In this document: one piece after another, positions 35,027 to 61,219 of the stretch
Position numbering within the stretch: position 1 is the first letter of the stretch
How the letters are laid out: every line of letters begins with the position of its first letter
Origin: Candidatus Nomurabacteria bacterium
GTDB lineage: Bacteria > Patescibacteriota > Minisyncoccia > Phycocordibacterales > UBA9973
NCBI GenBank assembly: GCA_016199805.1
Contig: JACQGC010000004.1
Location: forward strand, 106,908-170,907
DNA length: 64,000 nucleotides
Reading direction: 5' to 3'
Program-made: the position numbers and the translations under genes
The notes under the pieces: model-generated
Seen by the model: the letters and a program-made list of their open reading frames with translations, nothing else
What the model was told of the DNA's origin: nothing
The model's database searches: none

Positions 35027-35071
35027 GCGCCGCGTTTAATCGACGGTTACGCGGCATGATTTCGCAAAATC
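35027..35071 (+). promoter_or_regulatory. Start-proximal conserved element E (GC hairpin + ATGATTTCGCAAAATCA) directly 5' of the pnp start
   Basis: gccgcgtttaatcgacggttacgcggcATGATTTCGCAAAATCatg; near-identical copies at 61171-61219 and 59911-59955, variants at 51933-51979 and 50287-50343. Confidence 0.5.
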
Positions 35072-37219
35072 ATGTACAAAAAAGAATATAGTGTAGAGAT
35101 TGGAGGAAAAACTTTAACTGCCATGTTTACGGATTTGGCAGAGCAAGCTCACGGTTCGGTCTTATTAAAATACGGCGAGACTATCGTCCTCGCGACTGCT
35201 TGCATGTCGAAAGACAGACAAGCCGGGCTTGGATATTTTAATCTGACGGTGGACTACGTGGAGAAATTTTACGCAGCCGGAAAAATCCTGGGCTCACGTT
35301 TTGTGCGCCGGGAAGGGAAGCCATCCGAAGAAGCGATATTGGGCAGCAGAGTTATAGACAGAACTTTGCGTCCGCTTTTTGACCAATCCATCCGCCATGC
35401 AGTGCAGGTCATCGTTACAGTATTGTCTGTAGATGATAACGATCCCACGATTTTAGCGGTGAACGCCGCGTCCCTCGCTTTGGCTGTCTCCAATATTCCT
35501 TGGAATGGACCGGTAGGTTGCGTGAGAATTGGCAAGTATGCAGATAAAGACAACAGCGATACTTTAAAAATTAATCCGGCGCAATCTTTACGCTTGGGCG
35601 AAATGGATTACAAGTTTGACCTGACAGTTTGCGGCAAAGATGGAAATATAAATATGATTGAAGCGGCTGCGCACCAGAGCACCGAAGATGAACTGGAAAA
35701 AGCCTTCGGGGTAGCTAGCGCGGAAATAACCAAACTGGAAAATTTCCAGAAAAATATCGTCAAAGAAATCGGTAAAGAAAAAAGAGTGATAGAAAAAGAG
35801 ATAATCAATCCGGAGTCTACGGCATTGTTCAACGAAAATATCTTGCCCAAAATGGAGACGGCAATTTTCAACGAAGTCGGCAAAAAACATATTGATGAAT
35901 TGCACAATGTTTGGAACAAAATGGTAGCGGAAAAATATCCCGACCGAAAAGATTTTGCAGTTGAGGATGATTTATTTGATGACACCGAAAACGACATCTT
36001 ACACAAAAAAGCGATTGAAGAAAATTTGCGAGCTGATGGCCGAAAAATGGATGAGGTGCGTGATTTGTACGCGCAAGCCGGTGGACTTTCTCCTGTTCTA
36101 CACGGCTCTGGAATTTTTTATCGTGGGGGCACACACGTTCTTTCCGTATTAACTTTGGGAGGACCGGACGACAGAAATTTGGTGGATGGATTGCAACTGA
36201 AAACAGAAAAAAGATTTATGCACCATTACAACTTTCCGCCGTACTCGGCCGGAGAAACCGGACGCGCGGGATTTACAAATCGTCGCGAAGTCGGGCACGG
36301 AGCACTTGCTGAAAAAGCATTGCTTATGGTGTTGCCGCCAGTGACAGAATTTCCGTACACAATCCGAATCGTTTCTGAATCGATGGCCTCGAATGGTTCC
36401 ACTTCACAAGCTTCCATCTGCGCATCTATTCTCGCGCTCATGGATGGTGGAGTGCCCATCCTTGCCCCGGTCGCGGGTATCGCCATGGGATTGATGATGA
36501 CGACATCCGCCAAAGGCGGACAAGAATATAAAGTGCTGACCGACATCCAGGGACCTGAAGACCATTACGGTGATATGGATTTTAAAATTGCCGGTACACG
36601 TGAAGGGGTCACGGCTATCCAACTGGATGTGAAAGTAGAAGGTGTGCCGATAAAAATATTGGGCGAAGCCATGAAGCAAGCCAAAGGTGCGCGCGTAACC
36701 ATCATCGACAGAATTGAAAAAGAAATTCCAAAACCTCGGGCCAATATTTCTCCAAACGCTCCAGAAATCTTAATCATCAAAATCAATCCGGATAAGATAG
36801 GTATGGTTATCGGTGGTGGCGGAAAAACCATCAAAGACATTCAAGAGAGAACCGGGGCAACGATAACAATTGACGACGACGGAACTATCTATTTCACCGG
36901 TAAAGACGGTTCGGCCGGAAAAGCCAAAGCAATAGTGGAAGAAATGACCCATGAGTTTAAAATAGGCGAAGTTTTGCAAGGAAAAATAGTAAAAATGGCT
37001 GATTTTGGAGCCTTTGTTGAGCTCAATCCCTTTACCGATGGCATGGTGCATATATCCGAAATGGCCCCGTTCCGCGTGGAAAGAGTGTCCGACCTGGTAA
37101 AAGAAGGCATGATTGTGCCAGTCAAAATAATAAATATAGACGCGGAAAGAGGCAAAATCGGCCTATCTATCAAAGAAGCCGACAAAGATTTCTTCTCCGC
37201 TCACATCAAAAAGGCGTAA
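35072..37219 (+). CDS. pnp: Polynucleotide phosphorylase
   Basis: 715 aa; two RNase PH domains, KH (IGMVIGGGGKTIKDI) and S1 (GEVLQGKIVKMADFGAFVEL) domains. Confidence 0.9.
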   Translation: MYKKEYSVEIGGKTLTAMFTDLAEQAHGSVLLKYGETIVLATACMSKDRQAGLGYFNLTVDYVEKFYAAGKILGSRFVRREGKPSEEAILGSRVIDRTLRPLFDQSIRHAVQVIVTVLSVDDNDPTILAVNAASLALAVSNIPWNGPVGCVRIGKYADKDNSDTLKINPAQSLRLGEMDYKFDLTVCGKDGNINMIEAAAHQSTEDELEKAFGVASAEITKLENFQKNIVKEIGKEKRVIEKEIINPESTALFNENILPKMETAIFNEVGKKHIDELHNVWNKMVAEKYPDRKDFAVEDDLFDDTENDILHKKAIEENLRADGRKMDEVRDLYAQAGGLSPVLHGSGIFYRGGTHVLSVLTLGGPDDRNLVDGLQLKTEKRFMHHYNFPPYSAGETGRAGFTNRREVGHGALAEKALLMVLPPVTEFPYTIRIVSESMASNGSTSQASICASILALMDGGVPILAPVAGIAMGLMMTTSAKGGQEYKVLTDIQGPEDHYGDMDFKIAGTREGVTAIQLDVKVEGVPIKILGEAMKQAKGARVTIIDRIEKEIPKPRANISPNAPEILIIKINPDKIGMVIGGGGKTIKDIQERTGATITIDDDGTIYFTGKDGSAGKAKAIVEEMTHEFKIGEVLQGKIVKMADFGAFVELNPFTDGMVHISEMAPFRVERVSDLVKEGMIVPVKIINIDAERGKIGLSIKEADKDFFSAHIKKA

Positions 37220-37337
37220 AATTCTAAAAAAATGTTAGAATATAAAAGATAAAGTAAGAAGACCCCGAAAGAATTTTTTAGACTTTATTTTATGAATGAG
37301 ATGAACACTTAGTAAGTAAATTATATTTTTAGTCAAC

Positions 37338-38231
37338 ATGACAAAAGAAAGTGAAAATTCAAACGGGGCAGGTAAAAATCTCGAGCACAGCGCAATCGTG
37401 GAAACTTACAGCGGAGACATGGCCGAGGTCCTTGAGAGCGACACAGAAGGGCTAATCAAAAAAATAATTCACGGCGAAGAGGAACATAGCAAGGAACAAA
37501 AAGAAATGTCTCCCGAGTCGAAGAAAAACAGGCTTTTCATGATTATCGGTATAGTGTTGATTGCCATAGCTTTGATTATTTTATCTTTTTTCTTATTTAG
37601 GAAAAATGCAAGTACTGTTCCCGTGGCGCAGCAGTTCATTCCAATTGTTTTTAACGACCAAATAACTTATCTCGAAATTTCCGGACTCAAAAAAGACCAG
37701 ATAGCCCAAGCCGTGCTGAACGACATCGATAATACAAAGGTAAAAGTGGGAGGACTGGAGGGTATTTATCCGACCGAAAATAAAAAAATAATCGGACTGA
37801 GAAGATTTATCTCTCTGACAGAGAGCGGCTTTGCTCCGGGAGATAACCCGCTTTTCATCAACGACAATTTCTTGATGGGAGATGTGAATAGTCCGGCCGG
37901 ACCCGCCTCTGAATTGGCGGGCAAGGATTTTTTCATGCTGATAAAAGTGCGGCAGACAGCGGATGTCTTTGCCCCGATGCGCGCGTGGGAAAAGAATCTT
38001 TTTGTCGACTTGCGCGGTTTTTTGAGTATAAATACCGGCAGCGATACAAGCTACCTGCTCTCGAAAAATTTTGAAGACGGAATTATAGAAAACAAAAACG
38101 CTCGAATACTTTATGACCAAAACAAGCAAATAGTTTTGATGTACATTTTTGCCAATGATAATTCGGTAATCATCACTGGCTCGGAAGCCGCAGCGCACGA
38201 GGTATTGCTTCGCTTGGCTTCGGGGAAGTAA
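37338..38231 (+). CDS. Membrane-anchored hypothetical protein
   Basis: 297 aa; acidic N-terminus, one TM (LFMIIGIVLIAIALIILSFFLF), extracytoplasmic domain. Confidence 0.5.
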   Translation: MTKESENSNGAGKNLEHSAIVETYSGDMAEVLESDTEGLIKKIIHGEEEHSKEQKEMSPESKKNRLFMIIGIVLIAIALIILSFFLFRKNASTVPVAQQFIPIVFNDQITYLEISGLKKDQIAQAVLNDIDNTKVKVGGLEGIYPTENKKIIGLRRFISLTESGFAPGDNPLFINDNFLMGDVNSPAGPASELAGKDFFMLIKVRQTADVFAPMRAWEKNLFVDLRGFLSINTGSDTSYLLSKNFEDGIIENKNARILYDQNKQIVLMYIFANDNSVIITGSEAAAHEVLLRLASGK

Positions 38232-38251
38232 CCCAAAAGACCGTCTTTTGG

Positions 38252-39850
38252 CTATTCTATAGCCGGTAATTCTAGATAAAATTGAGAACCTTTGTCGGCG
38301 CCTTCGGATTCCGCCCAGACACGTCCTTTGTGGGCTTCTATTATGAATTTCACGGAATAGAGACCATAGCCGGTGCTGTCCACATTTACCTTAACCGAGT
38401 TTTTACCTCTGCCACCTTCGGTAAACAACCCTTTTTTGTCTTCTTCGGTAATGCCTACTCCTGTGTCTTTAACTGAAAGTAAAATTTTGTCAGCATTCTT
38501 TTCCAAGCCAACTGTTATTTTTCCCTCCCGTGTATATTTTATGGAGTTTTCAATCAAATTATTTACGGCTTCTTTGAGCCAGAAAGCATCACCCAAAACC
38601 GAGTAAGCATTTTCTTTTATTTTCATCGTAATTTCCAAACCTTTTGCTTTTGCTGAAACATTTTTTTCCTCGACAGTTTTCTGCACGATTTCTTTAAAGT
38701 CAGTTTTTTGCATATCGTATTTTACGATGCCTTTTTGCAGATTGTCCGCGTTTAAAACCAAATCCACGGTCTCGATACCCATATTGTCGGATTCCAGTCC
38801 CTGCTCGGCTCTCTTTTTTACTTCGTCATTTATTTCACCGAAAGTTCCATCCAAAATTCCGGCAAAAATATATTTGGAACGGGTAAAAGAGCCTTTGACT
38901 TTGTGGGTGACCAAGTGCACTAAGCTCTCTCTTTGCTTGATGGATTCTTCCAGGCTGGTGTTGAGCTTTGCCAGTTCTTCTTTTTGTTCAACTTCTAAGA
39001 TAACACTTCTGATTAAATTTATGCCAAATATGAGCACTAATAGGAAAACACTGCTTCTAAAAATAATCAGGACAAGAGTATTTGAAAATATTATTTCCAG
39101 AAATAAAACGATTGATAGAAGAAAAACCAGCGTTGAGGTAGAAACTACTTTTATACTGAAAAGACGATGATGTAGGATTGCATAAGTGGTGAAAATGACG
39201 AAGGGGAAAGTGAATAATGCACCCAAAGGAAGGTATCTTGGATTTTCCAGAATAGCTGGAAATATAAAGTTAAAGGTTATAATTAACCCGAACATAATAG
39301 CTGTTCCGAAAAGTATTTTAACGTAGGCTCCTGATTGTGCCTTGTCCGCACGGTGAAGATTTCTAATAAATATAAATAAAGCCGAAATTACCAAAGCAAC
39401 ACTGACCACTCCAAAAAGAGGGATAGCTGGCCCGTTTGATATTTTTATTATACTTCCTGTCGCCGACATTTCTTTTATTTTGGAAAGAACCAAAGGTGAA
39501 GCTGATATACCTGCCGTAAGCAGCACAAACGGCACCAAAAGATATTTGTAGATTTTGGAAAATATTACTGTTGTATTTGGGAATACGTAAAAAAATTGAA
39601 AAATAGAAAAAGCTTGAAGTACCGCCAAAAATAAAACCAATCTTAGTAGCGCAAAAGCTATGTTTGGGTTCATGAGCTTATATCCAAAATAGTTTGCCAA
39701 CCCCCATACTCCAGTAACTATTGAGAATAAAAGGAATGTTTTATTAGTTATGCTTTTCTTATCAGTAAAGAACACCGTAAACCCAAGTATAAAGGTTCCC
39801 GCAATTGCCACGGCAACCGACAGAATATCCAAATTTTCTATTACATTCAT
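38252..39850 (-). CDS. Sensor histidine kinase with polytopic N-terminal sensor domain (no cognate response regulator nearby)
   Basis: At least 8 TM; HATPase_c motifs NLIENSIKYT, DTGVGI, GYGLYSVKFIIEAHKGRVW. Confidence 0.7.
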   Translation of the reverse strand: MNVIENLDILSVAVAIAGTFILGFTVFFTDKKSITNKTFLLFSIVTGVWGLANYFGYKLMNPNIAFALLRLVLFLAVLQAFSIFQFFYVFPNTTVIFSKIYKYLLVPFVLLTAGISASPLVLSKIKEMSATGSIIKISNGPAIPLFGVVSVALVISALFIFIRNLHRADKAQSGAYVKILFGTAIMFGLIITFNFIFPAILENPRYLPLGALFTFPFVIFTTYAILHHRLFSIKVVSTSTLVFLLSIVLFLEIIFSNTLVLIIFRSSVFLLVLIFGINLIRSVILEVEQKEELAKLNTSLEESIKQRESLVHLVTHKVKGSFTRSKYIFAGILDGTFGEINDEVKKRAEQGLESDNMGIETVDLVLNADNLQKGIVKYDMQKTDFKEIVQKTVEEKNVSAKAKGLEITMKIKENAYSVLGDAFWLKEAVNNLIENSIKYTREGKITVGLEKNADKILLSVKDTGVGITEEDKKGLFTEGGRGKNSVKVNVDSTGYGLYSVKFIIEAHKGRVWAESEGADKGSQFYLELPAIE

Positions 39851-39887
39851 ATGTTGTTTTTATTATATATTAAAATACATTCATTTC

Positions 39888-40943
39888 CTATTCTATAACT
39901 GGTTCCTTCCTACTGCTGCGAGCTGACGGATTTTTTGCGTAGCCAACGCGGAACATCAGAAGAGGTACCTCGCTTGAGGATAGATTGAACGCGGAAAATA
40001 TGTCTTGGTATGATTTTAATGCAATTTTTTTGTGTTTCTGGCTTAGTATCTGGTCGGTCAAACTGTTTTGTAGTTTAAAGCCCAAAAAAAGAATTGCGGC
40101 TACCGGCTGAAAAGCAAGCCCCAGTGACGTTGTTTTTAGCCAGATTTCCTGCAGTTTCATTCCAAGTTTAACAAAATTTTCCGGGGATATTTTTTTTAAA
40201 GTTAATAATCCCATTACAGAACTACTCGAATATAACACCGCATCTTGTTTCGCAATAAAATAAGGCAGATGAATTTTTACTGCCAGTCGCATCAATATTT
40301 TATTACTGGCTAACTTAAAAAGAAGTCGTTGCACAGGATTAAATTCCATTGTTTTTATATAAAGACCGTGTTTTTCTTTCCTTTCCTGTTTTTCGGACCA
40401 CATCACATCCTTGAAAAGGTATTCGTGAAGTAATTTATTTTCTAAAATAATTATTTCTGCTGAACTCCCCGCTGTTCCAGCCAGATTTTTATTTTCCGTA
40501 TCCGTTATAAAATGAACGGAAACATCGTCAAACGCACCTGCCTCTTCAAAGAGTATATTTTCTTTTCCAGAAAGTTGTTTTTGCTCATAGGGTCTTCTAT
40601 TTGTCGCCCGTTTCGCGATAAATTCAAACAGAGGATCAATCTGTATATCTAAACTGTTTTCAAAATTAATTTCTGCCACAAGATTTAAATCGCCCGGTTC
40701 CGGGAATAATTTTATTTTTGTCACTAATCCTAGTTTTGGGGATGCGATTTCTATATTTTTTAGCAGTGCGCCATGTGCAATCAAGGAACCACCCTGCATG
40801 AAATTTAAATACGGGTTATCTTTGTCCGGTAAATTATAAATTCTAAGCGTGGTGTTTGATAAAACAAACCGCCATGGTTGGGAGTTGTCACCCGATGGGG
40901 CCATCACACTATATGAAAGTATTTCTTTTATTTTTTTATCCAT
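39888..40943 (-). CDS. Nitroreductase-superfamily FMN oxidoreductase, double-domain (Acg/SagB-like)
   Basis: APSGDNSQPWRF and IAKRATNRRPY (RRSxR-like FMN-binding) motifs; 351 aa, longer than single-domain nitroreductases. Confidence 0.6.
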   Translation of the reverse strand: MDKKIKEILSYSVMAPSGDNSQPWRFVLSNTTLRIYNLPDKDNPYLNFMQGGSLIAHGALLKNIEIASPKLGLVTKIKLFPEPGDLNLVAEINFENSLDIQIDPLFEFIAKRATNRRPYEQKQLSGKENILFEEAGAFDDVSVHFITDTENKNLAGTAGSSAEIIILENKLLHEYLFKDVMWSEKQERKEKHGLYIKTMEFNPVQRLLFKLASNKILMRLAVKIHLPYFIAKQDAVLYSSSSVMGLLTLKKISPENFVKLGMKLQEIWLKTTSLGLAFQPVAAILFLGFKLQNSLTDQILSQKHKKIALKSYQDIFSAFNLSSSEVPLLMFRVGYAKNPSARSSRKEPVIE

Positions 40944-42445
40944 TTTTGCTTTATTCCTGGCTTAAAGTATTCTTGGCTTCCGTTTTTCCAAAGCGTCACG
41001 GAAACGCGCGCCCTATCATTGAAATGACTTATTGTCTCCTTGTATTCTGAATGAGTTTTTAGCAGCTGATTATGGATAAGTTCCGTAACTTCATTTAAAA
41101 GATGTGCGGACGGGCTGACATTTTTTTTAAGTTCAACGTGGACAATAAGTTTCGGGTCTTGTTCCCCGGAAAAACTTGATTCAAGTACGAATTTTCCGGT
41201 AACTTTCTTTTGGATGTCCTTTCCTAATAATATTTTCCTTATAGGACCTGGATATACCTGAAAAGCATAATAGCTCACAGAAAAATCGCTTCTCTCAAAC
41301 ACATAAACAAACGGCAGTTCCCAAACACTACCCTGTATTTTATGTTTTTTGGCTTCTATCTGAAGATCAATGCCAAATTCTTTGAATAAATAGACCATAT
41401 CCCGGAACCTTATGACACTTCCTCTGTCCTCCAGGTCATATCTGATTAAGGGAATTGCGCTTTCGCTGGTGCAGTAAATATTATTATCAATAGATTCGAA
41501 ATAAAACAACTCTGGCAGATATTGTGTCAGGGTTGGTATTTTTATGATATTTCCGAATATTTTTTTATACAAAACCTCATTTTTTTCGGCCAATTTTTTT
41601 ATCAAAATACAGATAGGTGTTTCGTAAGACATAGTTCCGAGGTCTACTGTGCCATAATGGTTGAGCGTATCCAAAAAAATATTCTTACTGCCAACAATAT
41701 CACCGACATAATCTCGGAAAGATTCAGGGAAAGCTTCTGCAGAAAATACGAACTTAATGTTATATTTTTTCCAGTTGATACCCTCATGAAGTCCCGCATC
41801 CAAAATATCTTTGGCAAATGGGCCATATGCCCCGATGATTATTTGGTCGTAATTTTTTCCCATTTTTCCCACTGTTTTTATAACCAAAGAAGTATCAATT
41901 CCGGCCGTAATTATGCTTAGCGGATAGTTTGCCTCACGAGCAATTCGGGTTATCACTTCATAGGTAAAAATACCACCAATCCATGGGCCCATCGGAAAAG
42001 CATCAATATATAAAGTTTTTTTCTTGTGTACTTGAAAATTATTTCTTAAATAAATTTCAGCGTAGAGCTGGTATTGTCTATCCTGTGTTTCAGTTCTGGG
42101 GAAATAAAACGGTTCCCCTGTCGAACCTGAAGTAGTGGCAAAAACCCTGGGTATCTCTGTCAATTGGTTTTTAGTAAAAAGTTTTTCAAAAGGATAAGAC
42201 CTCAAATAGCTGTTTTTACCCGGAGGCGGTAAATCTTTAAATTCGCTCACTGTTTTAACAAGAGGTATTTTACCGATTTGTTTTTTTAAAAAATCTTTAT
42301 AAGCCGGAACCTGTTTGGCTTCCTTAAAAAGTTTCAAAAGATTTTTTTCGCCACGTTTAATCCAAAAAGACTCCTTTTTGGTTCCGAGTAGCTTTTCCAA
42401 TTCAAGAGTTTTTTTGTGAACGGAATACCTCATATGTTTATTCAA
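40928..42445 (-). CDS. ANL-superfamily adenylate-forming enzyme, PaaK/coenzyme-F390-synthetase-like
   Basis: 505 aa; ATTSGSTGEPFYFP (TSGSTG P-loop of PaaK/F390 ligases). Confidence 0.6.
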   Translation of the reverse strand: MNKHMRYSVHKKTLELEKLLGTKKESFWIKRGEKNLLKLFKEAKQVPAYKDFLKKQIGKIPLVKTVSEFKDLPPPGKNSYLRSYPFEKLFTKNQLTEIPRVFATTSGSTGEPFYFPRTETQDRQYQLYAEIYLRNNFQVHKKKTLYIDAFPMGPWIGGIFTYEVITRIAREANYPLSIITAGIDTSLVIKTVGKMGKNYDQIIIGAYGPFAKDILDAGLHEGINWKKYNIKFVFSAEAFPESFRDYVGDIVGSKNIFLDTLNHYGTVDLGTMSYETPICILIKKLAEKNEVLYKKIFGNIIKIPTLTQYLPELFYFESIDNNIYCTSESAIPLIRYDLEDRGSVIRFRDMVYLFKEFGIDLQIEAKKHKIQGSVWELPFVYVFERSDFSVSYYAFQVYPGPIRKILLGKDIQKKVTGKFVLESSFSGEQDPKLIVHVELKKNVSPSAHLLNEVTELIHNQLLKTHSEYKETISHFNDRARVSVTLWKNGSQEYFKPGIKQKWIKK

Positions 42446-43503
42446 AAATTATTAAATTTTTTCTCAGCGATTTCATTGGCTATAATGTTTGTAGCTTTTT
42501 TATTTTGGTCGCTTCCTATGAAAATTTCATTCAAAATATCCTTAATTTTCATTACCTTGGCGCTGACAGTGTCTTTGTTGTAAATTTTATTACTATATTC
42601 ATCAAAAACACTAATAAGCCCTCCCGCATTTGCAATATAATCAGGCGCATATAAAATATGCTTCTCGAAAAGAACCGTACCGAGAGATTCTTTTTCCAGC
42701 TGGTTGTTGGCTCCACCCGCGACAATCTTGCATCTCAAATCCTGTATAGTTTTTTCATTAATTACTCCTCCCAAAGCGCAAGGACAAAATACATCCACTT
42801 CTAGCTTGTGAATTTCCTTAGGGTCGACGATTTTAACATCTGGAAATTTTTCTTTAATCATCTTTATTTTTTCCGGAATAATATCGGAAACATAGATGAT
42901 GCGACAACCTGAATCCGAGAGGAGTTTTATCAATCCGGCGCCGATATTCCCGACTCCTTGAATTGCAAAACTTCTTTTTGAAACATCTTTCGTGCTAAAT
43001 ACTTTTTGCAGAGATACTTGGATAGCGTTGTAGATGCCAAGAGTGGTAAATTCCACTGAATTATCGTTAAACCCCACAATATATGGAGTTTCCTCTTTCA
43101 TAATGGCCAAATCCCTCTGGCATAAACCAACGTCAGTACCTGTAATAAATTTTCCTTTGAGTAAGTCTACATTTTTCGCATATTCTCTTAAAAGTTCCTC
43201 TCGATTTGGAGAGGTCGGGTTTGCAATAATTACGCCCTTCCCGCCGCCACAATCTAGTCCGGCCAGCGCGGCTTTATACGACATCATTCGAGATAAACGT
43301 AAGGAGTCCCGAAGTCCCTCTATACCATTTTTATATGCCCACATTCTAGTTGCTCCAAAGGAGGGGACAGTTGGATTTTTCCTGTGAATGGAGATGTACC
43401 CCTTGAAGCCAATGTCTTTATTTTCTAAAAGAAAAACCCCATTGTGATTTTCAAATTCCGGCAGGGCTCTGATTTCGGGATTATTTGTTATGTCTGTTAT
43501 CAT
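42442..43503 (-). CDS. Glu/Leu/Phe/Val-family amino-acid dehydrogenase
   Basis: 353 aa; KAALAGLDCGGGKGVI catalytic glycine-rich motif; NAD Rossmann segment GVGNIGAGL. Confidence 0.75.
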   Translation of the reverse strand: MITDITNNPEIRALPEFENHNGVFLLENKDIGFKGYISIHRKNPTVPSFGATRMWAYKNGIEGLRDSLRLSRMMSYKAALAGLDCGGGKGVIIANPTSPNREELLREYAKNVDLLKGKFITGTDVGLCQRDLAIMKEETPYIVGFNDNSVEFTTLGIYNAIQVSLQKVFSTKDVSKRSFAIQGVGNIGAGLIKLLSDSGCRIIYVSDIIPEKIKMIKEKFPDVKIVDPKEIHKLEVDVFCPCALGGVINEKTIQDLRCKIVAGGANNQLEKESLGTVLFEKHILYAPDYIANAGGLISVFDEYSNKIYNKDTVSAKVMKIKDILNEIFIGSDQNKKATNIIANEIAEKKFNNF

Positions 43504-43506
43504 AAT

Positions 43507-44586: not shown

Positions 44587-44661
44587 TTCCCAAATGAAAG
44601 ATATGTGTATATTATAGCACATTAAATAAATGGAAAATAATCTAAAAAAAGCTATAAAAAT

Positions 44662-50224: not shown

Positions 50225-50253
50225 TTGACAGTGAACGAGCGTTCACTTATACT
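50225..50253 (+). promoter_or_regulatory. Sigma70-type promoter TTGACA-17-TATACT with embedded LexA (Cheo-type) box GAAC-N4-GTTC
   Basis: ttgacaGTGAACGAGCGTTCACttatact; box at 50232-50245 lies in the spacer. Confidence 0.65.
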
Positions 50254-50286: not shown

Positions 50287-50343
50287 TTACGTCGCGCTTC
50301 GTCGCATTTCAATGGAGAATGCGACATGATTCAGCAGAATCAA
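50287..50343 (+). promoter_or_regulatory. Variant copy of start-proximal element E overlapping the start of the SOS-box-regulated small ORF
   Basis: acgtcgcgcttcgtcgcatttcaatggagaatgcgacATGATTCAGCAGAATCAA. Confidence 0.4.
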
Positions 50344-50571
50344 TTGCGCGACGCGATTTTGCAAAATCGCATGTCTCAATCACAATATTTAAAAATGTTA
50401 GAAAAAGAGATTCAGAAGATTAATCAAAAGATTGATTTGAAGATTCTTCAAGGTGAAGCATATTTCAAGGAAGCCAGGGACCACAAGTTGCTCCTCAAAA
50501 AAGTCCGCTATCATACCCGCCGCAGTTTTTTCAGCCGGGTTTTTCCGGGATTGGCAAAATTTTCTTTCTAA
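50326..50571 (+). CDS. Small coiled-coil hypothetical protein co-transcribed upstream of lexA, under the LexA-box promoter
   Basis: 81 aa (MIQQNQLRDAILQNR...); 6-nt gap to lexA. Confidence 0.5.
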   Translation: MIQQNQLRDAILQNRMSQSQYLKMLEKEIQKINQKIDLKILQGEAYFKEARDHKLLLKKVRYHTRRSFFSRVFPGLAKFSF

Positions 50572-51640: not shown

Positions 51641-51659
51641 CTTTTCGCGCGAAAAGAAT

Positions 51660-51932: not shown

Positions 51933-51979
51933 ATGATTCTGCGAATCACGTCGCGCAAGTCCTTTCGGCGCGACGCAAC
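51933..51979 (-). promoter_or_regulatory. Variant copy of start-proximal element E in the hup leader (GC hairpin + GATTCGCAGAATCAT + ATG)
   Basis: On the mRNA strand: gcgtcgcgccgaaaggacttgcgcgacgtGATTCGCAGAATCATatg. Confidence 0.4.
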
Positions 51980-52087
51980 TTAAAAGTTAATTTAATAATC
52001 TGTTCGACCTTTTAACCCTTATATTTGCTACCACCTTATTATATAGCAAGGGTTTTTTAAGGCAAGGGGTCGAAAAATATAACTTTT

Positions 52088-53614: not shown

Positions 53615-53851
53615 AAGCTTTGTGTCAGCTTACAAGAACAAGCCACTATATAGAGTTCTCCTTTTTTGCGAGGATGTCAGTAAAGATTTGAAAATTTTCT
53701 CTCATACTTTCTTTTATAAACTTCATAATATATGGAATATTCCTGTGAACCGGACTTAAATTAACAAAATAAATTTCTAAATTTCAACTTTTTCAGTATA
53801 ACAGATAAAAGATTTTTTGTCTATATAATTTTTTTGTGCTAAAATAATGCT

Positions 53852-55741
53852 ATGCATCCCGGGCTAAAATCTTGGCGGAACCTTGTCATCTATGCTTTTA
53901 ACGCTTTTTCCATACCGCTACTTCTAAAGACTCTAATTTCTCCATGGAAGATGGACGGCAGCGCCACCGGGCACTTGTCGATTTTTGAGAGGTTGGTTTT
54001 TGCCATATTCTCTCGGGTTTTGGGTTTGGTGGCCCGAATTTTTCTCATAGTTCTCGGTTTGGTTTTTACTTTAATTATTATTCTGACTTTCCCAATCTTC
54101 TTGGTTTTGCCGATAAATATCAGTCGGGAAACTTTGCAAAGTTTCGGCAGTTTTGGCGCTTCACTTTCTTATGGCGACACTTTTACATTAAATAAACACA
54201 GCCGCGACGTCGTGCTTTTCTCCGCCCAAAAAATTTACGGTAAAGAAAAAGCTCTGCGCATGATTGAGCGGGGACTTTCCAGAGATACCAACCACAACAT
54301 GCTCTTGGTGGGAGACACGGGCATAGGTAAGTCGACCCTGATTTCTTATCTCGGGCTCCTCGGGCAGTCCGGCTTGTCTTTCCCGGGCATTCATAATCAT
54401 AGAGTGGTGGAGCTGATGATTGAAGGTCTTTCGGTTCCGGATTTTGAGAAGTGCTTGAAAGAAGCAGCCGGAGCGGGTAATATAATTTTGGTCATCGAAA
54501 ACATACACGCATATGAATCAATATATGAAAAACTCATGCCATCTCTCGATATGCGCCACCTGGGCATCATCGTGACCACCGATTTGTCCGATTACGACAG
54601 AGTGCTGAAAAATCATCCGGAATTTCTTTCGAAGTTTGGAAAAGTCGACATAGAAGAAACATCCGAAGCCGACACTGTGGCAATCTTGAAGAATAACGCT
54701 CGCTTACTTCGGATGAAAATCAAGCCGGATGCCATTTTGGAAATTGTGAAACTGTCCGACCGGCTGATTGCCAACATTCCGGAACCGGCCAAGTCGCTTT
54801 CCGTTTTGTCGGAACTTCAAACGTTAAAGAAAACTATCACTATCGATGATGTCAGGCAGATAATCTCCGACAAAACAAATGTCCCGATTGGAGCCATCGG
54901 CGCCGACGAGAGAAAAGTGCTGATAGGGCTGGAAGTTTCAATGCGGGAAAAAATTGTCGGGCAAGACGAAGCCGTGAAAGACGTGTCCGAAGCTCTGCGC
55001 CGATTGCGTACCGGAGTGGCTGACCACAGCAAGCCAGCCGGGAGTTTTCTTTTCTTGGGTCCGACGGGTGTGGGCAAGACATATACCGCTAAAATCTTGG
55101 CGGAAAGTTATTTTGGCCGGAAAAACGCGATGATTCGTTTTGATATGAGTGAATTTTCCCTGCCGGGCTCCGTGGATGTATTTGTGGACAGACTCTCGGC
55201 GGTGATAGAAGAAGCGCCACTCTCGCTTGTGTTCTTTGATGAACTCGAAAAGGCCAATTCCTCTATTCACAATTTGCTCCTGCAGGTGCTAGACGAAGGA
55301 CGCCTGACCAGAAATTCTGGGCGAGAAGCCAGCTTTAAAGACAGTATCATCATCGCCACTTCCAATGCCGGCAGCGCGGATATTATCGCCAGCCCAAACA
55401 TTGATAAAAAAGTTTTGATAAATGGTTTGATAAAAAGGGGAGTGTTCGCGCCGGAATTTTTAAACAGGTTCAATGACATCGTGCTTTTCAAACCCCTCAA
55501 TCAGGATGAAGCGAGAAAGATTGCCTCCTTGATGCTCTCCGAGTTTGCCGAGAGGCTTTTGGAGGATAAAAAAATCACTTTGGTCATCACTGATGCATTG
55601 ATTGATAAAATTTCCGCGGCGGGTTTTGACCCGGAGTTTGGAGCCAGACCCATCAAACGGGCCATGGAAGAAATTGTCGAAAATAAAGTGGCGGAATACA
55701 TAATGGCGGGGAACAGCGAAGGTAGCTTGAAGATACTGTAA
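53852..55741 (+). CDS. ClpA/ClpB/ClpC-family double-AAA+ ATPase with N-terminal polytopic membrane domain in place of the usual N-domain
   Basis: About 3 TM in the first 100 aa; NBD1 LLVGDTGIGKSTLI; NBD2 SFLFLGPTGVGKTYTAKILAESYFG...MIRFDMSEF, highly similar to the ClpA/B D2 signature. Confidence 0.65.
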   Translation: MHPGLKSWRNLVIYAFNAFSIPLLLKTLISPWKMDGSATGHLSIFERLVFAIFSRVLGLVARIFLIVLGLVFTLIIILTFPIFLVLPINISRETLQSFGSFGASLSYGDTFTLNKHSRDVVLFSAQKIYGKEKALRMIERGLSRDTNHNMLLVGDTGIGKSTLISYLGLLGQSGLSFPGIHNHRVVELMIEGLSVPDFEKCLKEAAGAGNIILVIENIHAYESIYEKLMPSLDMRHLGIIVTTDLSDYDRVLKNHPEFLSKFGKVDIEETSEADTVAILKNNARLLRMKIKPDAILEIVKLSDRLIANIPEPAKSLSVLSELQTLKKTITIDDVRQIISDKTNVPIGAIGADERKVLIGLEVSMREKIVGQDEAVKDVSEALRRLRTGVADHSKPAGSFLFLGPTGVGKTYTAKILAESYFGRKNAMIRFDMSEFSLPGSVDVFVDRLSAVIEEAPLSLVFFDELEKANSSIHNLLLQVLDEGRLTRNSGREASFKDSIIIATSNAGSADIIASPNIDKKVLINGLIKRGVFAPEFLNRFNDIVLFKPLNQDEARKIASLMLSEFAERLLEDKKITLVITDALIDKISAAGFDPEFGARPIKRAMEEIVENKVAEYIMAGNSEGSLKIL

Positions 55742-55786
55742 AAAAGAGTATAGTGGGGGTATTAATATTAAATCGGATATAAAAAT

Positions 55787-56056
55787 ATGAGTATGGAAAA
55801 TGTACCACAGCCATTCGGTCAGAAAGTTAAACATTTTTTGGGTATGGATTTTAAAGCTAGAAAAGATGCTGATAGAAGAAAAGAGCTAGAAACGAAATTA
55901 GCAACTGCTAAAAAATGGCTTTTATCTTCGGATTATAGTGGGCAAAGAGATTCATCTGACACCGGAGGTGGCAGTGTAAATAGTAACATCGTAGAAGGAT
56001 ATAAAAAGGAAATTTTTGATTTGGAAAAAGAGTTAGGTGAACTAAATAAAAATTAA
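55787..56056 (+). CDS. Small hypothetical protein
   Basis: 89 aa ORF between the Clp ATPase and convergent clpP; 4-nt overlap with the clpP stop. Confidence 0.35.
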
Positions 56057-56658
56057 TCTTCTCTCTTTTTCTCCGGAGCTTTGGATTTGGTGACTATTTC
56101 GTCTATGATGCCGTATTTTTTGGATTCTTCGGCGTCCATAAAGAAATCCCTTTCTACGTCTTTTTCTATTTGAGCTAAAGGCTTGCCGGTATTTTTGGCG
56201 AGTAATTTATTTAAATTATCTCTGGTCTTCAGAATGTGCTTGGCAGTGATGGCGATATCTGTGGCCTGGCCCTCCACTCCACCCATCGGCTGGTGAATCA
56301 TCACTTCGGCATTTGGAAGAATAAATCTTTTTCCTTTTTTGCCGGCAGATAAAACAATAGCCGCGCCGGAAGCGGCTAGACCCACGCAGAAAGTGGAAAT
56401 ATCCGGGCGCACGTGGTTCATCGTGTCTACGATGGCCATAGTGCTGGTGACGGAACCGCCGGGGGAGTTGATATAAAGATAAATATCTTTTTTAGAATCT
56501 TCGGATTCGAGGAACAAGAGCTGGGCGATGACGATATTCGCCGTGTCGTCATCTATCGCTCCGGCCAGGAAAACGATCCGCTCGCGCAAAAGACGCGAGT
56601 AAATATCATAAGCTCTTTCTCCAAACTGTGATTTTTCTATAACTGTGGGGATTAACAT
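56053..56658 (-). CDS. clpP: ATP-dependent Clp protease proteolytic subunit
   Basis: [31 protein letters not shown], catalytic S (GGSVTS), H and D regions. The track ORF start (56748) is an artefactual extension through the GC palindromic element; Met at 56658 matches the ClpP N-terminus. Confidence 0.85.
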
Positions 56659-56701
56659 AATGAGTATTATAGCAAAAATTTTAGTTTTTTCAAATACAAG
56701 A

Positions 56702-56835
56702 GCCTCACCCCTGACCCCTCTCCAGAGTACTGGCGAGGGGGAATACAACCCCCTGAATCCCCCTTGTCAGGGGGACTGAAATCCACGAAGTATTTTTCCT
56801 CCCCTGACAAGGGGAGGCCGGGAGGGGTTGTATTT
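56702..56835. repeat. Composite GC-rich palindromic element (type B followed by type A) between clpP and tig
   Basis: cctcacccctgacccctctccagagtactggcgaggggg...cccccttgtcaggggga...cctcccctgacaaggggagg...gggaggggttgta. Confidence 0.55.
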
Positions 56836-56841
56836 CTTCTT

Positions 56842-57891
56842 TTATTGATTCTCCAAAAACTGGAAGATTTTTTCGTTGGTGAGGACGTTCTCGGCGTGCG
56901 TTTCCGCCCTTTGCGGGTCCGCGTCTTTATATTGTTCCAATATCATGGCGACTTCTTGCGCCACTTGTTCTTTGTCCGCTTCTATTTTTTCTTCCTTGGC
57001 TATTTCATTCAAAATGAGCGCCAGCTTGGCTTTTTTCTCGGCATCAGCACGAAAGTCTTTTTGTAAATCTTCTTTGGTTTTATTCAAGTGCTTCAAATAG
57101 TCCTCGAATTTCAGGCCCATCTGGGTGATGTCGGACTCCATGCGGTACAAAATTTTGTCCAGTTCAATATTCACCAAGATTTCCGGCAACTCCAAAGTGC
57201 TTTCGTCTATTATTTTCTCAATAATTTTCAGACGAGTTTTTTCTTTGAGGGCATTTTCTTTTTCCAGTTTGATATTGGCCTTCAATTTTTCCTTGAAGTC
57301 TGCCACGTTCTCGAATGGGCCAAGAGCCTGTACAAAATCATCGTTGAATTCCGGAAGTTCAGGTTCAAGATGAACTTCGCCTTCTTTGTGTTCATGCTCG
57401 GCGATGTTTACTTTGGGAGCGCGGGATTTACGGATATCCATTACGGTATTTTCCACGTCTTCGGGAGTGACTTCCACGTTTTTCTCTTCGTCGGTGATGG
57501 AGGAGATCATTTCCTTGGCCACTTTTTTATAATCGGGAAGTTTTATCCCCGGCATAACGGCGGTTTTTATTTTGAAGCCGAGAGGGTTTTTGCGCGCGAG
57601 TTTGATGATGGAAATTTCCGGTCGGCTGATGGCATCTATTTTTTCATCGGCGATAATTTTCGGATAATATTCTGCCAGAGCCATCTCGGCCATTTCTTCC
57701 AAGATACTGATTTCCGGAACATTGGACAGTAAAACACTTTCCGGAACTTTACCCGGCCTAAATCCGTCCAGTTTTACATTTTCGCCTATCTTTTTAAGCG
57801 CAGCAGAATAATAAGATTCGAATTTCTCTGCGTCTATTTCACCTTCAATTTCTACTTCGCTATTGGGAAGTTTCTTGACTGTTATTTGCAT
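56842..57891 (-). CDS. tig: Trigger factor (short form, 349 aa)
   Basis: N-terminal ribosome-binding domain MQITVKKLPNSEVEIEGEIDAE...GFRPGKVP. Confidence 0.75.
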   Translation of the reverse strand: MQITVKKLPNSEVEIEGEIDAEKFESYYSAALKKIGENVKLDGFRPGKVPESVLLSNVPEISILEEMAEMALAEYYPKIIADEKIDAISRPEISIIKLARKNPLGFKIKTAVMPGIKLPDYKKVAKEMISSITDEEKNVEVTPEDVENTVMDIRKSRAPKVNIAEHEHKEGEVHLEPELPEFNDDFVQALGPFENVADFKEKLKANIKLEKENALKEKTRLKIIEKIIDESTLELPEILVNIELDKILYRMESDITQMGLKFEDYLKHLNKTKEDLQKDFRADAEKKAKLALILNEIAKEEKIEADKEQVAQEVAMILEQYKDADPQRAETHAENVLTNEKIFQFLENQ

Positions 57892-57895
57892 ATAT

Positions 57896-59908
57896 TTATA
57901 TCAATAAAATAACTATGAGTAAGGCCACGATGTTCAAGATTTTTATCATCGGGTTGATGGCTGGGCCGGCAGTATCTTTGTATGGGTCGCCGACGGTGTC
58001 TCCGGTCACAGCGGCCTTGTGGGCATCACTGCCTTTGCCTCCATGGTTTCCACCTTCAATGTATTTCTTGGCATTGTCCCAAGCGCCTCCGCCGGAGGTC
58101 ATAGAGATAGCCACGAAGAGCCCGGTCACGATTGAGCCGACGAGCAGTCCGCCCAACACAACCAAACCTTTTTCTTTTCCAAAAATTAAAACGACGAGAA
58201 TCGGAGCAAGTACCGGAATCAAAGCTGGTAATATCATTTGCTTGATGGCGGCGCCGGTGATGATGGAAACGGCCTTGGCGTAATCCGGTTTTGCTTTTCC
58301 TTCCATGATGCCTTTTATTTCTCTGAATTGTCGGCGGATTTCTTCCACGACTTTTCCGGCAGTTTTTCCCACGGCTTCCATGCAGAGCGCGCCGAAATAA
58401 TATGGCAAGAGTCCTCCCAAGAAGAGTCCGACGATGACATAAGGATTACTCAAATCAAAAGTGATACTTTTCCCGGCCTTGATAATTTCTTCAGTGTAAG
58501 AAGCGAAGAGCACAAGAGCGGCAAGTCCGGCAGAACCGATGGCGTAACCCTTGGTCACAGCCTTGGTGGTGTTGCCTACGGCATCGAGTGGGTCGGTGAC
58601 ATCGCGAACCTCTTTTGGCAATTCGGCCATTTCGGCGATACCTCCAGCGTTGTCGGTGATGGGCCCATAGGCATCGATAGCTACAATGATTCCGGTCATC
58701 GAGAGCATGCTCATAGCGGCTACGGCGATACCATAAAGTCCGCCGTATGTGTAACTAATTAATATTCCAACAACGATAGTAATCAAAGGCAGAGCGGTAG
58801 ATTTCATGGAAATAGCCAAACCTTGGATGACGTTTGTGCCGTGTCCGGATACGGATGCTTCCGCGATAGATTTAACAGGATAGTATTTTGTAGAAGTAAA
58901 ATATTCGGTGATGACTACGAGTGCTCCGGTGACCAAAAGGCCAACCAGAGAACAAATAAATAAATCCATTACGGAATATTTTCCATTTCCGGACATAAGC
59001 ATATTGGTGATAGGGTAGAAAGCGATAGCGGCGATGACTCCAGCGGCAATGAGGCCTTTGTACAAAGCCCCCATGATATTTTGTTTTTTACCGAGGCGTA
59101 CAAACCAAGTGCCGATGATGGAGGCGAAGATTGCCATCCCGCCGATAGCCAGAGGATAGAGAACTGCATTTTCAAAACCGGCAAAAAGAAGTGAACCTAA
59201 AAGCATTGTCGCCACAGAAGTAACTGCGTAAGTTTCAAAAAGGTCCGCGGCCATGCCAGCACAGTCTCCTACATTGTCTCCTACATTGTCGGCGATAACT
59301 CCCGGATTTCTTGGGTCATCTTCGGGAATTCCGGCTTCAAGTTTACCCACCAAATCTGCGCCGACATCGGCTGCTTTAGTGAAAATTCCACCACCGAGTC
59401 TGGCAAATACGGAAATGAGTGATGCGCCGAAACCAAGTCCGACGAGAGCGGTAACGTCATGAGTAATAGCATAAAAAGCCGATACGCCGAGAAGAGCCAG
59501 TCCGACTACCAAGAGTCCGGTCACAGTTCCTCCTTTAAAAGCTAGAGAAAGTGCTTCATTTATTCCACCACGAGCAGCTTCAGCGGTGCGTACGTTTGCG
59601 CGGACAGATACGTTCATACCGATGTATCCGGCCAAAGCAGAGAAGACAGCGCCGACTAAAAATCCGAAAGCCATTGTCCAGCCGAGCTTGGGAACGAGTC
59701 CGACGATGAAGAAGAGAACCACGGCAATCATGCCGATGGTTTTATATTGTTTATTTAAATAAGCGCCCGCGCCCTCTTGGATAGCTTTGGCTATTTCTTG
59801 CATCCGCGCATTCCCGGCGCTCTTTTTTAAAATAGACTTTGCTAAAAACAAACCGTAAACAATAGACAGAACAGCACTAATTATTGCAAACAATAAAAAT
59901 GTATTCAT
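57896..59908 (-). CDS. hppA: Membrane-bound proton/sodium-translocating pyrophosphatase
   Basis: [22 protein letters not shown] and other V-PPase motifs, about 15 TM. Start set at MNTFLL (59908); the track ORF extends through element E via TTG/ATG. Confidence 0.85.
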
Positions 59909-59910
59909 TT

Positions 59911-59955
59911 GATTTTGCGAAATCATGCCGCGCAATCGTCCATTAAAGCGCGGCG
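59911..59955 (-). promoter_or_regulatory. Start-proximal element E copy at hppA
   Basis: mRNA strand: cgccgcgctttaatggacgattgcgcggcATGATTTCGCAAAATCAAatgaat. Confidence 0.5.
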
Positions 59956-59971
59956 TTTAATTAATAATAAT

Positions 59972-61168
59972 TTATTCCTCTTCTTTTGCTTCTTCTGCTA
60001 CTTTTTCTTCTGTCGCCGATGTTTCGTCTCCTTTTATATCTATTCTCCAGCCGGTCAGCTTGGCGGCCAAGCGAACATTTTGTCCGCCTTTGCCGATGGC
60101 GAGTGAGAGCTGGTCGTTGCCCACTTCCACTGTCGCCTTGTGTTCTTTTTCATCAATTTCTATAGAGATGACTTTGGCCGGGGAAAGAGCGTTGGAAACA
60201 AAAACTTTTGGGTCTACAGACCAAGGAATTATATCAATTTTTTCTCCGGAAAGCTCACTGGTGATGGTGTTTACTCGGGTGCCTTTTTGTCCGACACAAG
60301 AACCCACGGCATCTATATGTTCGTCGTTAGAAAATACCGCTATCTTGGAGCGGGCGCCGGCTTCACGGGCCACCGCTTTTATTTCCACCACGCCGTTTTC
60401 AATTTCCGGAGCTTCCAGAGCGAAAAGTTTTTCTATAAATTTTGGATGAGTGCGGGAAAGACGCAAATTTATGCCCCGAGGAGAATCTTCCACGCTAAAG
60501 AGGTAAGCTCTCACTCTGCGGCCCCGTTCCCAATATTCGCCGGGAATTTGTTCTTCGGCTCCCAGGATACCTGTGGCCCGGTTGAAATCTATGTAAACAT
60601 TGCCCCTCTCCACTTTTTGGACCACACCGGAAACCACTTCGCCTTCTTTGGTGCCGTATTCATCTATGATGGAAGTACGTTCCGCTTCACGGATTTTCTG
60701 GATGATGACTTGCTTGGCTGTCTGTGCGGCGATGCGTCCGTAATCATCTTTGGCTTCGAGCGGGAAAATAATTTCATCGTTCAGCTCTACCCCTTTTTTT
60801 ATTTTCTTGGCATCTTCGAGGAGGATGTGGTGCTCGCTGTTAAAATGCACGCGTTCGTCTGTGTTTTCTTTGAGTGAATACTCACCCCCTCCTTTCTCCT
60901 CCCCCTTAGTAAGGGGGAGGCCGGGTAGGGGTCTTTCTCCGTCCATTATGGCGATACTTTCATCCACAACTATTTTTACCTGGAAAAAATCCGTTTTGCC
61001 TGTCTCCATGTCAAACTTGGCGCGGACAATTTGTCCTTTTTTGCCGTAATCTTTCTTGTAGGCGGCGGCCATAGCTTGCTCGATGGCTTCCAATATTTTT
61101 TCCTTAGGAATCTTCCTCTCTTCCTCTAATTGCTCTAACGCTGACTTGAATGTTTTTATATCTAACAT
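59972..61168 (-). CDS. nusA: Transcription termination/antitermination factor NusA (with in-frame GC palindromic insert encoding KGEEKGGGEYS)
   Basis: S1 domain and two KH domains (GQNVRLAAKLTGWRIDIK). Confidence 0.85.
   Translation of the reverse strand: MLDIKTFKSALEQLEEERKIPKEKILEAIEQAMAAAYKKDYGKKGQIVRAKFDMETGKTDFFQVKIVVDESIAIMDGERPLPGLPLTKGEEKGGGEYSLKENTDERVHFNSEHHILLEDAKKIKKGVELNDEIIFPLEAKDDYGRIAAQTAKQVIIQKIREAERTSIIDEYGTKEGEVVSGVVQKVERGNVYIDFNRATGILGAEEQIPGEYWERGRRVRAYLFSVEDSPRGINLRLSRTHPKFIEKLFALEAPEIENGVVEIKAVAREAGARSKIAVFSNDEHIDAVGSCVGQKGTRVNTITSELSGEKIDIIPWSVDPKVFVSNALSPAKVISIEIDEKEHKATVEVGNDQLSLAIGKGGQNVRLAAKLTGWRIDIKGDETSATEEKVAEEAKEEE
60881..60940. repeat. In-frame GC-rich palindromic insert within nusA
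   Basis: ctcaccccctcctttctcctcccccttagtaagggggaggccgggtagggg. Confidence 0.5.
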
Positions 61169-61170
61169 GT

Positions 61171-61219
61171 GATTTGATTTTGCGAAATCATGCCGCGTAA
61201 CCGTCGATTAAACGCGGCG
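61171..61219 (-). promoter_or_regulatory. Start-proximal element E copy at nusA
   Basis: mRNA strand: cgccgcgtttaatcgacggttacgcggcATGATTTCGCAAAATCAAatcacATGtta; 45/45 identity to the pnp copy over the core. Confidence 0.5.

Follow-up and report, generated by a model that had tools for sequence, protein, structure and literature searches.

Small selfish palindromic repeats are well known in Proteobacteria and Rickettsia. Repetitive extragenic palindromes (REPs) lie outside genes, typically at gene 3' ends and in both orientations, carry a 5' GTAG and are linked to a RAYT gene, and the Rickettsia palindromic elements (RPEs) were reportedly described by Ogata et al. in 2000. RPEs measure ~100-150 bp and about half of the RPE-1 copies are intragenic, according to one account (PMC10969869). 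[quoted passage not shown] The present analysis concerns a 64,000-nt stretch of contig JACQGC010000004.1 from a Candidatus Nomurabacteria bacterium (hereafter the window), in which one conserved element had been predicted, from the sequence alone, at the starts of pnp, nusA, hppA, hup and a small open reading frame (ORF), and had been taken for a shared leader under a single post-transcriptional regulator. The element, composed of a GC-rich hairpin (H1) followed by an A/U-rich palindromic hairpin (H2), is best described as a new, widespread Parcubacterial family of 44-nt two-hairpin dispersed repeats and not as the leader of a five-gene regulon.

The element resembles RPEs in being a dispersed palindrome of the small, reduced genomes of host-dependent bacteria, in being inserted in frame into unrelated conserved genes with a conserved peptide, and in occurring in non-coding DNA as well. 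It differs from them in its length of 44 nt, in its restriction to Patescibacteria and in an intragenic share of ~8% against about half for RPE-1; no sequence relationship was seen, as judged by length and composition rather than by direct alignment, and RPEs are not known to be flush with start codons. With the REP sequences and bacterial interspersed mosaic elements (BIMEs) of the RAYT system it has in common the size class (20-45 nt), hairpins whose stems vary by compensation and in which certain unpaired bases are conserved, the absence of TIRs and of target-site duplications (TSDs), and composite or nested arrangements; unlike them, it has two different hairpins and stands in sense orientation only, before an ATG or inside ORFs. 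No GTAG was found beside the hairpin in the 102-copy alignment, which begins with G(T/C)CGC and has an A-rich 5' flank with frequent AGC. Correia/NEMIS elements are likewise sited upstream of genes, co-transcribed and inserted into one another, but they are neither flush with the ATG nor limited to one orientation, and the present element has no TIR or TA duplication. The closest systems in behaviour are RPEs (in-frame insertion) and REPs (size, covarying hairpin, no TIRs or TSDs), and the element is a member of none of RPE, REP and Correia. Among repeats sited mostly just before genes, the Correia elements are the best known (PMC10969869). Searches of the literature by sequence and by topic, and of Rfam, found no account of such a repeat family in Patescibacteria or the candidate phyla radiation (CPR); a paper on the TIGR-Tas system in which Parcubacteria and palindromes come up deals with tandem guide arrays and is unrelated. 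The copies probably represent one family of short, non-autonomous, dispersed two-hairpin repeats of the Parcubacteria/Paceibacteria-type Patescibacteria, which behaves as a selfish palindromic element of the RPE or REP kind.

Copies of the element in the window

The core pattern TGATTYNGCNRAATCA occurred four times in the 64-kb window against a chance expectation of 0.10, and a covariance model built from 102 copies (R1) recovered exactly five full copies, with scores of 48-73 bits and E values of 4e-10 to 2e-16 (Table 1). All five stand where the original prediction had put them, and each points toward its gene. Pfam confirmed that four of the host genes encode PNPase, NusA, an H+-PPase (with trigger factor downstream) and HU, and that the small ORF has an S24 LexA-like gene behind it. 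The copies at pnp and nusA, which had been described as identical over about 45 nt, agree at 45 of 45 nt (CGCCGCGTTTAATCGACGGTTACGCGGCATGATTTCGCAAAATCA). The distance d, counted in nt from the end of H2 to the ATG, ranges from -1 to 6 in the window; in the pnp copy the ATG shares the final A of H2, and the predicted fold pairs this start codon within an H2 extended to 9 bp. The hppA copy occupies almost the whole of the 63-nt nusA-hppA spacer. The hup copy is of the G-type, with a 15-nt H2 closing a 3-nt loop and with an H1 lengthened by GC and GU pairs.

The copy at the small ORF is a nested double element, in which a complete inner copy lies between the two arms of the outer H1 and the outer H2 is CGATTTTGCAAAATCG; its minimum free energy (MFE) is -36.3 with z = -3.2. 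The small ORF (66 aa) is conserved and has an orthologue in L107 (L-numbers label the related loci compared with the window), and since that orthologue begins MSQKQYLKSI directly after its own copy of the element, the true start is most likely the ATG right after the outer palindrome. The N-terminus MIQQNQ previously proposed, at 50326, is accordingly less likely. The other proposed feature, an upstream ATG encoding MISQN, is in frame for hppA only (internal ATG 59926), and at pnp and nusA it gives short out-of-frame ORFs (MISQNHVQKRI and MISQNQITC, each closed by a stop codon). Mechanical ORF calling picks false starts within the element, namely ATG 50326 for the small ORF and TTG 59935 for hppA, whose start is likely the one in Table 1.

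A strong promoter (TTGACA-17-TATACT), which serves the operon of the small ORF and the S24 LexA-like gene, lies upstream of the nested element, and a TTGCCT-16-TATAAT promoter places the hup copy within a ~98-nt 5' untranslated region (UTR); as good promoters lie upstream of both, the small-ORF and hup copies are transcribed within 5' UTRs. A GAAC-N4-GTTC box of the Cheo-type LexA kind was observed between the hexamers of the former promoter.

Table 1. Positions of the element and of nearby features in the window (scores from covariance model R1; d, nt between the end of H2 and the ATG)
Feature	Position (nt)	Strand	Score (bits)	ATG	d	Details
pnp copy	35029-35072	+	61.2	35072	-1	H1 arms 35029-35035 and 35049-35055; H2 35057-35072
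nusA copy	61175-61218	-	64.4	61168	6	identity with pnp copy over 61175-61219
hppA copy	59910-59954	-	73.4	59908	1	
hup copy	51934-51976	-	48.1	51932	1	
Small-ORF copy, nested double element	50290-50369	+	56.4 (inner copy)	50371 (probable)	1	outer H1 arms 50290-50297 and 50346-50353; outer H2 50354-50369; inner H1 50301-50325; inner H2 50327-50342
hup promoter	52065-52038					
Small-ORF promoter	50225-50253	+				upstream of nested element
LexA-type box	50233-50246					between promoter hexamers
nusA leader hairpin	61243-61270	-				
pnp leader hairpin	34952-35018	+				just upstream of element
Genes with leaderless pattern	27255-29027; 31894-32685; 32763-33740	-				
Gene with leaderless pattern	53852	+				
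AGTTATAAAGT repeat family	2323-6921; 10503-10528; 33824-33935	both				
CCCCCTGAYAAGGGGGATTYAGGGGG repeat family	14093-14118; 18680-18705; 56749-56774	-				

Structure and covariation

The element is 42-47 nt long (mode 44), and the consensus of the 102 aligned copies reads G-Y-CGC-R-Y / TTYAAnGGAC-R-N-T / R-Y-GCG-R-C / R / TGATTY-NGCA-RAATCA. H1 is a 7-bp GC stem (GYCGCRY/RYGCGRC), which reaches at least 9 bp in G-type copies through GC 5' and GT 3' of the stem, and its loop of 11-14 nt contains a conserved TTCAA..GAC. H2 is a weak 6-bp A/U-rich stem (TGATTY-NGCA-RAATCA) with a loop of 3-4 nt that holds an invariant GCA. Exchanges of whole pairs were observed in both stems, with counts in the alignment of UA/CG 77/22, GC/AU 76/16 and CG/UA 59/32 for three pairs of H1 and UA/CG 71/27 for the inner pair of H2. 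The covariation score was 0.219 against 0.112 in shuffles, none of 500 of which exceeded it, and slid registers scored ≤0.1; copies recovered by the covariance model, which are free of pattern bias, displayed compensation at two further H2 pairs (TAATT..AATTA, CGATT..AATCG). Because G.U and A.C intermediates are about equally common (12 vs about 10), the data do not decide whether the hairpins matter as RNA or as single-stranded DNA. Taken singly, the window copies have unremarkable folding z-scores of -0.9 to -1.7.

Several readings of the sequence itself were considered. H1 is followed by AUGAUUUC, with four U in eight nt, and an intrinsic terminator-like repeat (e.g. SPRITE) does not fit: a terminator scan did not flag the element, the H1 loop measures 11-14 nt, and the sites lie upstream of genes and in ORFs. 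A Shine-Dalgarno (SD)-like or CsrA-like reading of the H1 loop (GGA) was rejected, since conservation is confined to GAC, with CGAC and TGAC frequent as variants, and K-turn, box C/D and tRNA-like readings were not supported.

The sequence of H2, a 16-bp near-palindrome, and the symmetry of the G.U and A.C intermediates would also suit an action at the DNA level, with H2 as the operator of a dimeric repressor, or with the element as a promoter whose -35 hexamer is the TTGACA/TGGACA of the H1 loop and whose -10 hexamer, 18 nt downstream, is CARAAT; the loop's GAC corresponds to the core of a -35 hexamer, and CAAAAT is similar to the TAAAAT -10 box of this genome. Such an action is very improbable. 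A dimer operator is at odds with an H2 spacer of either 3 or 4 nt and with half-sites that vary by compensatory substitution, which fits a hairpin. As to the promoter, the ATG follows the putative CARAAT by only 2-3 nt, compared with 6 nt in native leaderless genes, and the transcripts would therefore start inside the ORF; furthermore, the small ORF and hup have strong upstream promoters of their own, and a promoter scan did not flag the element.

The pnp, nusA, hup, tig and recA genes of E. coli belong to the cold-inducible genes. An RNA thermometer, as had been suggested for the five genes, or a leader common to cold-inducible genes could draw on this overlap with the host genes, on the weakness of the A-U-rich H2 stem adjoining the AUG, and on the paired AUG of pnp. 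The AUG is nonetheless unpaired in four of the five predicted folds in the window, which speaks against a thermosensor, as do the single-copy z-scores; the set of host genes is very broad, the element is absent from orthologous leaders, and copies occur inside ORFs, and this explanation appears scarcely credible.

Distribution across genomes

The exact pattern was scanned for in 185,579 species, each represented by a single genome, and the counts given here and below refer to the matches listed. At least 116 stretches match the pattern against a chance expectation of about 9. Of the 116 matches listed, 108 come from metagenome-assembled genomes (MAGs) labelled Nomurabacteria, Paceibacterota, Minisyncoccia, Parcubacteria, Kaiser-, Zambryski-, Taylor- or Yonathbacteria, or Patescibacteria group, and some of the Patescibacterial MAGs among them carry an automated third party annotation (TPA) label of Saccharibacteria. 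The remaining 8 (from Psychrobacter, Planctomycetes, Acidobacteria and similar) have no H1 and low scores, and look like chance matches. The highest number for one MAG was four stretches among the matches listed; the window has its five copies in 64 kb. No match to the element was found in viral contigs. Rfam at gathering thresholds reported four tRNAs only in the window, and relaxing the limit to E ≤ 10 on the pnp copy gave noise only.

Position relative to start codons

Among the matches listed, ~80 of about 111 Patescibacterial copies (about 72%) have an ORF beginning with ATG 0-12 nt downstream of ..AATCA, with d = 1 in 39 copies, d = 0 in 12, d = 3 in 10 and d = 6 or 7 in 9; the AUG stands 0-1 nt past H2 in 51 of these 80 copies and at most 3 nt past it in 64. 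The adjacent start codons are all ATG. At least 89 copies are in sense with respect to the host gene and at most 3 are antisense, and every start-adjacent copy is in sense; the antisense strand of the element also has two open frames. The distance from the upstream stop codon is broad (median 75 nt, range -9 to 758, with a divergent upstream gene in 17 cases), and the element is therefore tied to the start codon and not to the upstream stop. The non-random placement at gene starts that had been predicted, together with the lack of a known Rfam family, is thus confirmed on a larger scale, a structured element abutting start codons across genomes.

The host genes are highly diverse and represent >60 unrelated families, such as tuf, rpsL, rplJ, rplX, atpD, atpG, recA, frr, secE, dnaJ, rnc and ung, as well as tpiA, map, gyrB, cysS, glutaredoxins, a pilin and many small hypothetical or unknown genes. 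Their functions range over translation, energy, repair, secretion, cell wall and redox, with many unknowns, and have no coherent theme. Hosts that return in several genomes are nusA, pnp, hup, tuf, frr, ung, glutaredoxin and the small ORF.

The genes of the window are mostly without an SD sequence, and GGAGG within 14 nt before the ATG was found only 10 times in 664 genes of the window and the related loci. Many window genes display TGnTAAAAT or TATAAT ~6 nt before the ATG, as expected for leaderless mRNAs (examples in Table 1). Of 65 copies, 19 have a -10-like hexamer 3-9 nt upstream of H1, where about 7 would be expected, and it looks as if many copies had landed in the discriminator of leaderless promoters, beside the transcription start, which in those genes is the ATG. 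AAUCA was rejected as a native leader motif, being ~2.9-fold enriched before ATGs, no more than other A-rich 5-mers.

Two types of copies differ in their spacing, A-type copies being linked to d = 1 and G-type copies to d = 0. Of 57 A-type copies, 38 have an internal ATG that shares the frame of the gene, mostly those with d = 1 and hppA among them, which would agree with the idea that the internal ATG or GTG is a working start, giving a mini upstream ORF (uORF) or leader peptide (MISQN..), or else lengthening the protein at its N-terminus, so as to control the gene. The triplet is, however, lost in several copies, where it reads ATA (L066), ACG (L076 and inner nested copies), GTA (L010) or GCG (the outer copy at the small ORF of the window); in each of these variants H2 is kept intact by a compensating change, and d remains 1. 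The GUG of G-type copies is partly paired in the extended H1 and, as these copies mostly have d = 0, is out of frame. The uORFs of pnp and nusA are likewise out of frame and their stops have no conserved relation to the start codon, and the conserved N-termini of orthologous proteins begin at the downstream ATG. An overlap of uORF stop and start as AUGA was tried for the copies with d = 3 and fitted only 3 of 10. The compensated loss of the internal ATG and the out-of-frame GUG contradict the leader peptide or N-terminal extension proposed at first, and a working internal start is highly unlikely.

In another explanation, the element would be a domesticated, portable RNA module of the start codon, whose H1 and H2, in sense, some conserved factor would recognise in trans, for instance an RNase, a protein that binds RNA, or the ribosome. 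In one version, cleavage at the foot of H2 would yield mRNAs starting at or 1 nt before the AUG, a punctuation giving leaderless mRNAs in an organism with mostly leaderless genes; in another, the element would be a translational operator or enhancer common to many housekeeping mRNAs, and in either the in-ORF copies would be by-products of the mobility of the element. The AUG abuts H2 tightly whatever the distance to the upstream gene, orientation is sense and the adjacent starts are all ATG, and bases are conserved in both loops (GAC in H1, GCA in H2). The lack of SD motifs in the genome and the spacing of TGnTAAAAT, 6 nt and ATG at many genes would also be in keeping with such a module, as would the location of window copies within 5' UTRs downstream of good promoters and the recurrence of the element on the same housekeeping genes in several genomes. 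The punctuation of mitochondrial transcripts by tRNAs offers a working analogy, in that a structured element abuts the AUG in a system that translates leaderless mRNAs; it differs in that the element is not tRNA-like, ARAGORN and Rfam having found only four real tRNAs in the window. An RNA module of this kind is possible but rather unlikely.

Copies inside reading frames and nested copies

Nine copies (~8%) are located within long ORFs, where they share one frame and are without exception in sense, and add ~15 residues of the form ..RRAS[IM]D[GT]AR[HR]D[FS]A[KE]S.. to the protein. Pfam domains run across these inserts in a family-4 uracil-DNA glycosylase (UDG), a DAO oxidoreductase, the anticodon-binding domain of IleRS, DNA polymerase III delta, TrmD and RecA. 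The RecA of L041, compared with that of L029 (75% identity), has a clean 22-aa insert exactly at the element. A run of at least five A precedes six of the nine in-ORF copies, against 5% of random in-ORF 14-mers, which suggests a preference for A-tracts, these being also typical before the ATG. The ATG itself was rejected as an insertion target, as the in-ORF copies have no following ATG.

About a dozen copies are nested, with a complete copy in the H1 loop of another at a fixed site between TTYA and GAC, and the layout of the small-ORF copy of the window recurs in L009, L047, L093, L022, L043, L048, L032, L078, L110 and L031. Copies away from an ATG (L019, L021, L042, L077, L083, L092) are often found at the apex of much longer inverted repeats, as in the composite palindrome of L019, GTATCAGTCGCGATATGCCCGACGGGGTC ... 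GACCCCGTCGGGCATATCGCGACTGATAC.

Orthologous sites in related genomes

The leader of nusA was compared across 80 metagenomic orthologue loci with 42-86% amino-acid identity. The element is absent from 79 of these 80 loci, including six of the seven closest, and only L120 has a copy; the closest relatives L117 and L121 belong to groundwater sets from Hainich. The nusA leaders have in common a promoter and a covarying terminator-like hairpin, and the slot between this hairpin and the ATG varies: it is empty in L117, holds the element in the window, L120 and L009, and holds unrelated repeats in L118, L119, L121, L123 and L126. The orthologous nusA-hppA spacer lacks the element in L119, L123 and L126, and that of L123 has a left flank nearly the same as in the window (ATTATTATTAATTAAA) with no element. 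The orthologous pnp copies of L100 and L052 differ from the pnp copy of the window, whereas the pnp and nusA copies of the window are identical.

Among the unrelated repeats, L121 has a ~170-nt palindromic element of its own before both nusA and hppA (L121:2330-2500 and L121:3682-3880), and runs of CTAAAGC and AGGCACTAGG-type heptamers were observed upstream of nusA in L118, L119 and L126.

Conservation in related leaders, whose absence the original prediction had itself named as refuting, was not found, the element missing from nearly all the nusA loci and from the nusA-hppA spacer of relatives. A regulatory leader shared by a functional set of genes is not supported, since the same element stands before >60 unrelated families and inside ORFs and is missing from the nusA and hppA leaders of relatives. 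The same comparison weakens the RNA module. The element is dispensable at orthologous sites of close relatives, and unrelated repeats can fill the slot before the ATG, which therefore does not call for a specific sequence. The copies inside ORFs would likewise be cleaved or bound, and the near-equal G.U and A.C intermediates are unlike those of typical functional RNA helices. In several copies the -10 box stands only 3-5 nt before H1, and the transcript would therefore miss part of the 5' arm of H1. No Rfam ribozyme or leader matches the element.

Other repeats and leader hairpins in the window

A second repeat family, AGTTATAAAGT and its variants, has 15 matches in the window (≤1 mismatch), where 1.6 are expected; its copies, of either orientation, lie in short intergenic stretches directly before the ATGs of consecutive genes, and the repeat contains TATAAA, which is -10-like. 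A third family is a G-rich hairpin, CCCCCTGAYAAGGGGGATTYAGGGGG, in three near-identical copies, two of which lie 0-19 nt upstream of called start codons. In the nusA leader, a TTGCAT..TAGTAT promoter precedes the terminator-like hairpin, which has a U-tract (AGTCCTGTCGCAACAGGGCTTTTGTTTT) and is kept with compensatory stem changes in most relatives (L117-L139); this hairpin is a candidate NusA autoregulatory attenuator. The pnp leader has a long hairpin with an MFE of -24.7 kcal/mol and z = -4.4, and none of 200 shuffles was as stable; it recalls the pnp leader of E. coli, whose autoregulatory hairpin is cleaved by RNase III.

Discussion

On the preferred reading of the element as a dispersed palindromic repeat, copies would be gained and lost over short evolutionary times and would persist, nearly always in sense, in two places, either flush with a start codon, where they make up the last ~44 nt of the 5' UTR, or in frame within an ORF. 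Copying might be carried out by a factor that recognises single-stranded hairpins, e.g. an HUH/RAYT-like enzyme, or might result from template switching at A-tracts, driven by microhomology. Copies before the ATG may be kept because the transcribed element forms two self-contained hairpins and its A-rich 3' strand (CAAAAUCA) replaces the native A-rich, SD-less leader, so that translation would survive the insertion. The five genes of the window would then have the element in common because of a site preference and not because they form a regulon.

Several observations weigh against this reading. No mobilising gene was found, a tblastn search with an IS200 TnpA sequence, which is a weak test, having returned nothing at E < 0.05 in 1.3 Mb of partial genome sequence. 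No TSD and no TIR were found, the flanks of 98 copies being without a direct repeat, and the ends of the element (GYCGC.. and ..AATCA) are not mutual inverted repeats. No near-identical pair of filled and empty alleles was obtained, and no insertion event was observed. Tolerance of copies where they are harmless does not explain why the position is flush even in ~100-nt UTRs, nor the near-absolute sense orientation; a counter-selection of antisense copies as terminators was considered and is weak, since H1 in sense also precedes four U in eight nt. Simple tolerance likewise gives no account of why d follows a 3-nt period, just 5 of 78 copies having d mod 3 = 2, and does not explain the link of A-type copies to d = 1 and of G-type copies to d = 0. 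The recurrence of the element on the same genes in several genomes could reflect function.

The flush position, the sense bias and the periodicity of d point to a constraint of some kind at the level of the transcript. An RNA-level or transcription-coupled explanation is kept alive by them, either as strand-specific insertion into the exposed non-template strand or, which is rather unlikely, as a genuine function of the transcribed module at the start codon, and a generic post-transcriptional role in translation initiation or mRNA processing is possible. A more far-reaching proposal, doubtful as it is, would make the element a mobile, self-spreading start-codon module, in which a conserved Parcubacterial factor reads the junction of H1 and H2 and either cuts transcripts, turning internal or leadered cistrons into leaderless mRNAs, or loads or blocks ribosomes at the AUG.

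As a dispersed repeat, the family extends over many Parcubacterial lineages with an almost invariant core and has in-frame insertions in essential proteins, RecA, IleRS and TrmD among them. For practical purposes, the element misleads gene callers and may be mistaken for the motif of a regulon. Its flush siting in one orientation either shows how ultra-compact, largely leaderless and SD-poor genomes tolerate insertions or marks an unrecognised signal of translation start, and the finding would gain weight if the flush position reflected a role in translation initiation or mRNA processing. If the start-codon module were true, transposition would rewire the expression of housekeeping genes across a whole bacterial superphylum.

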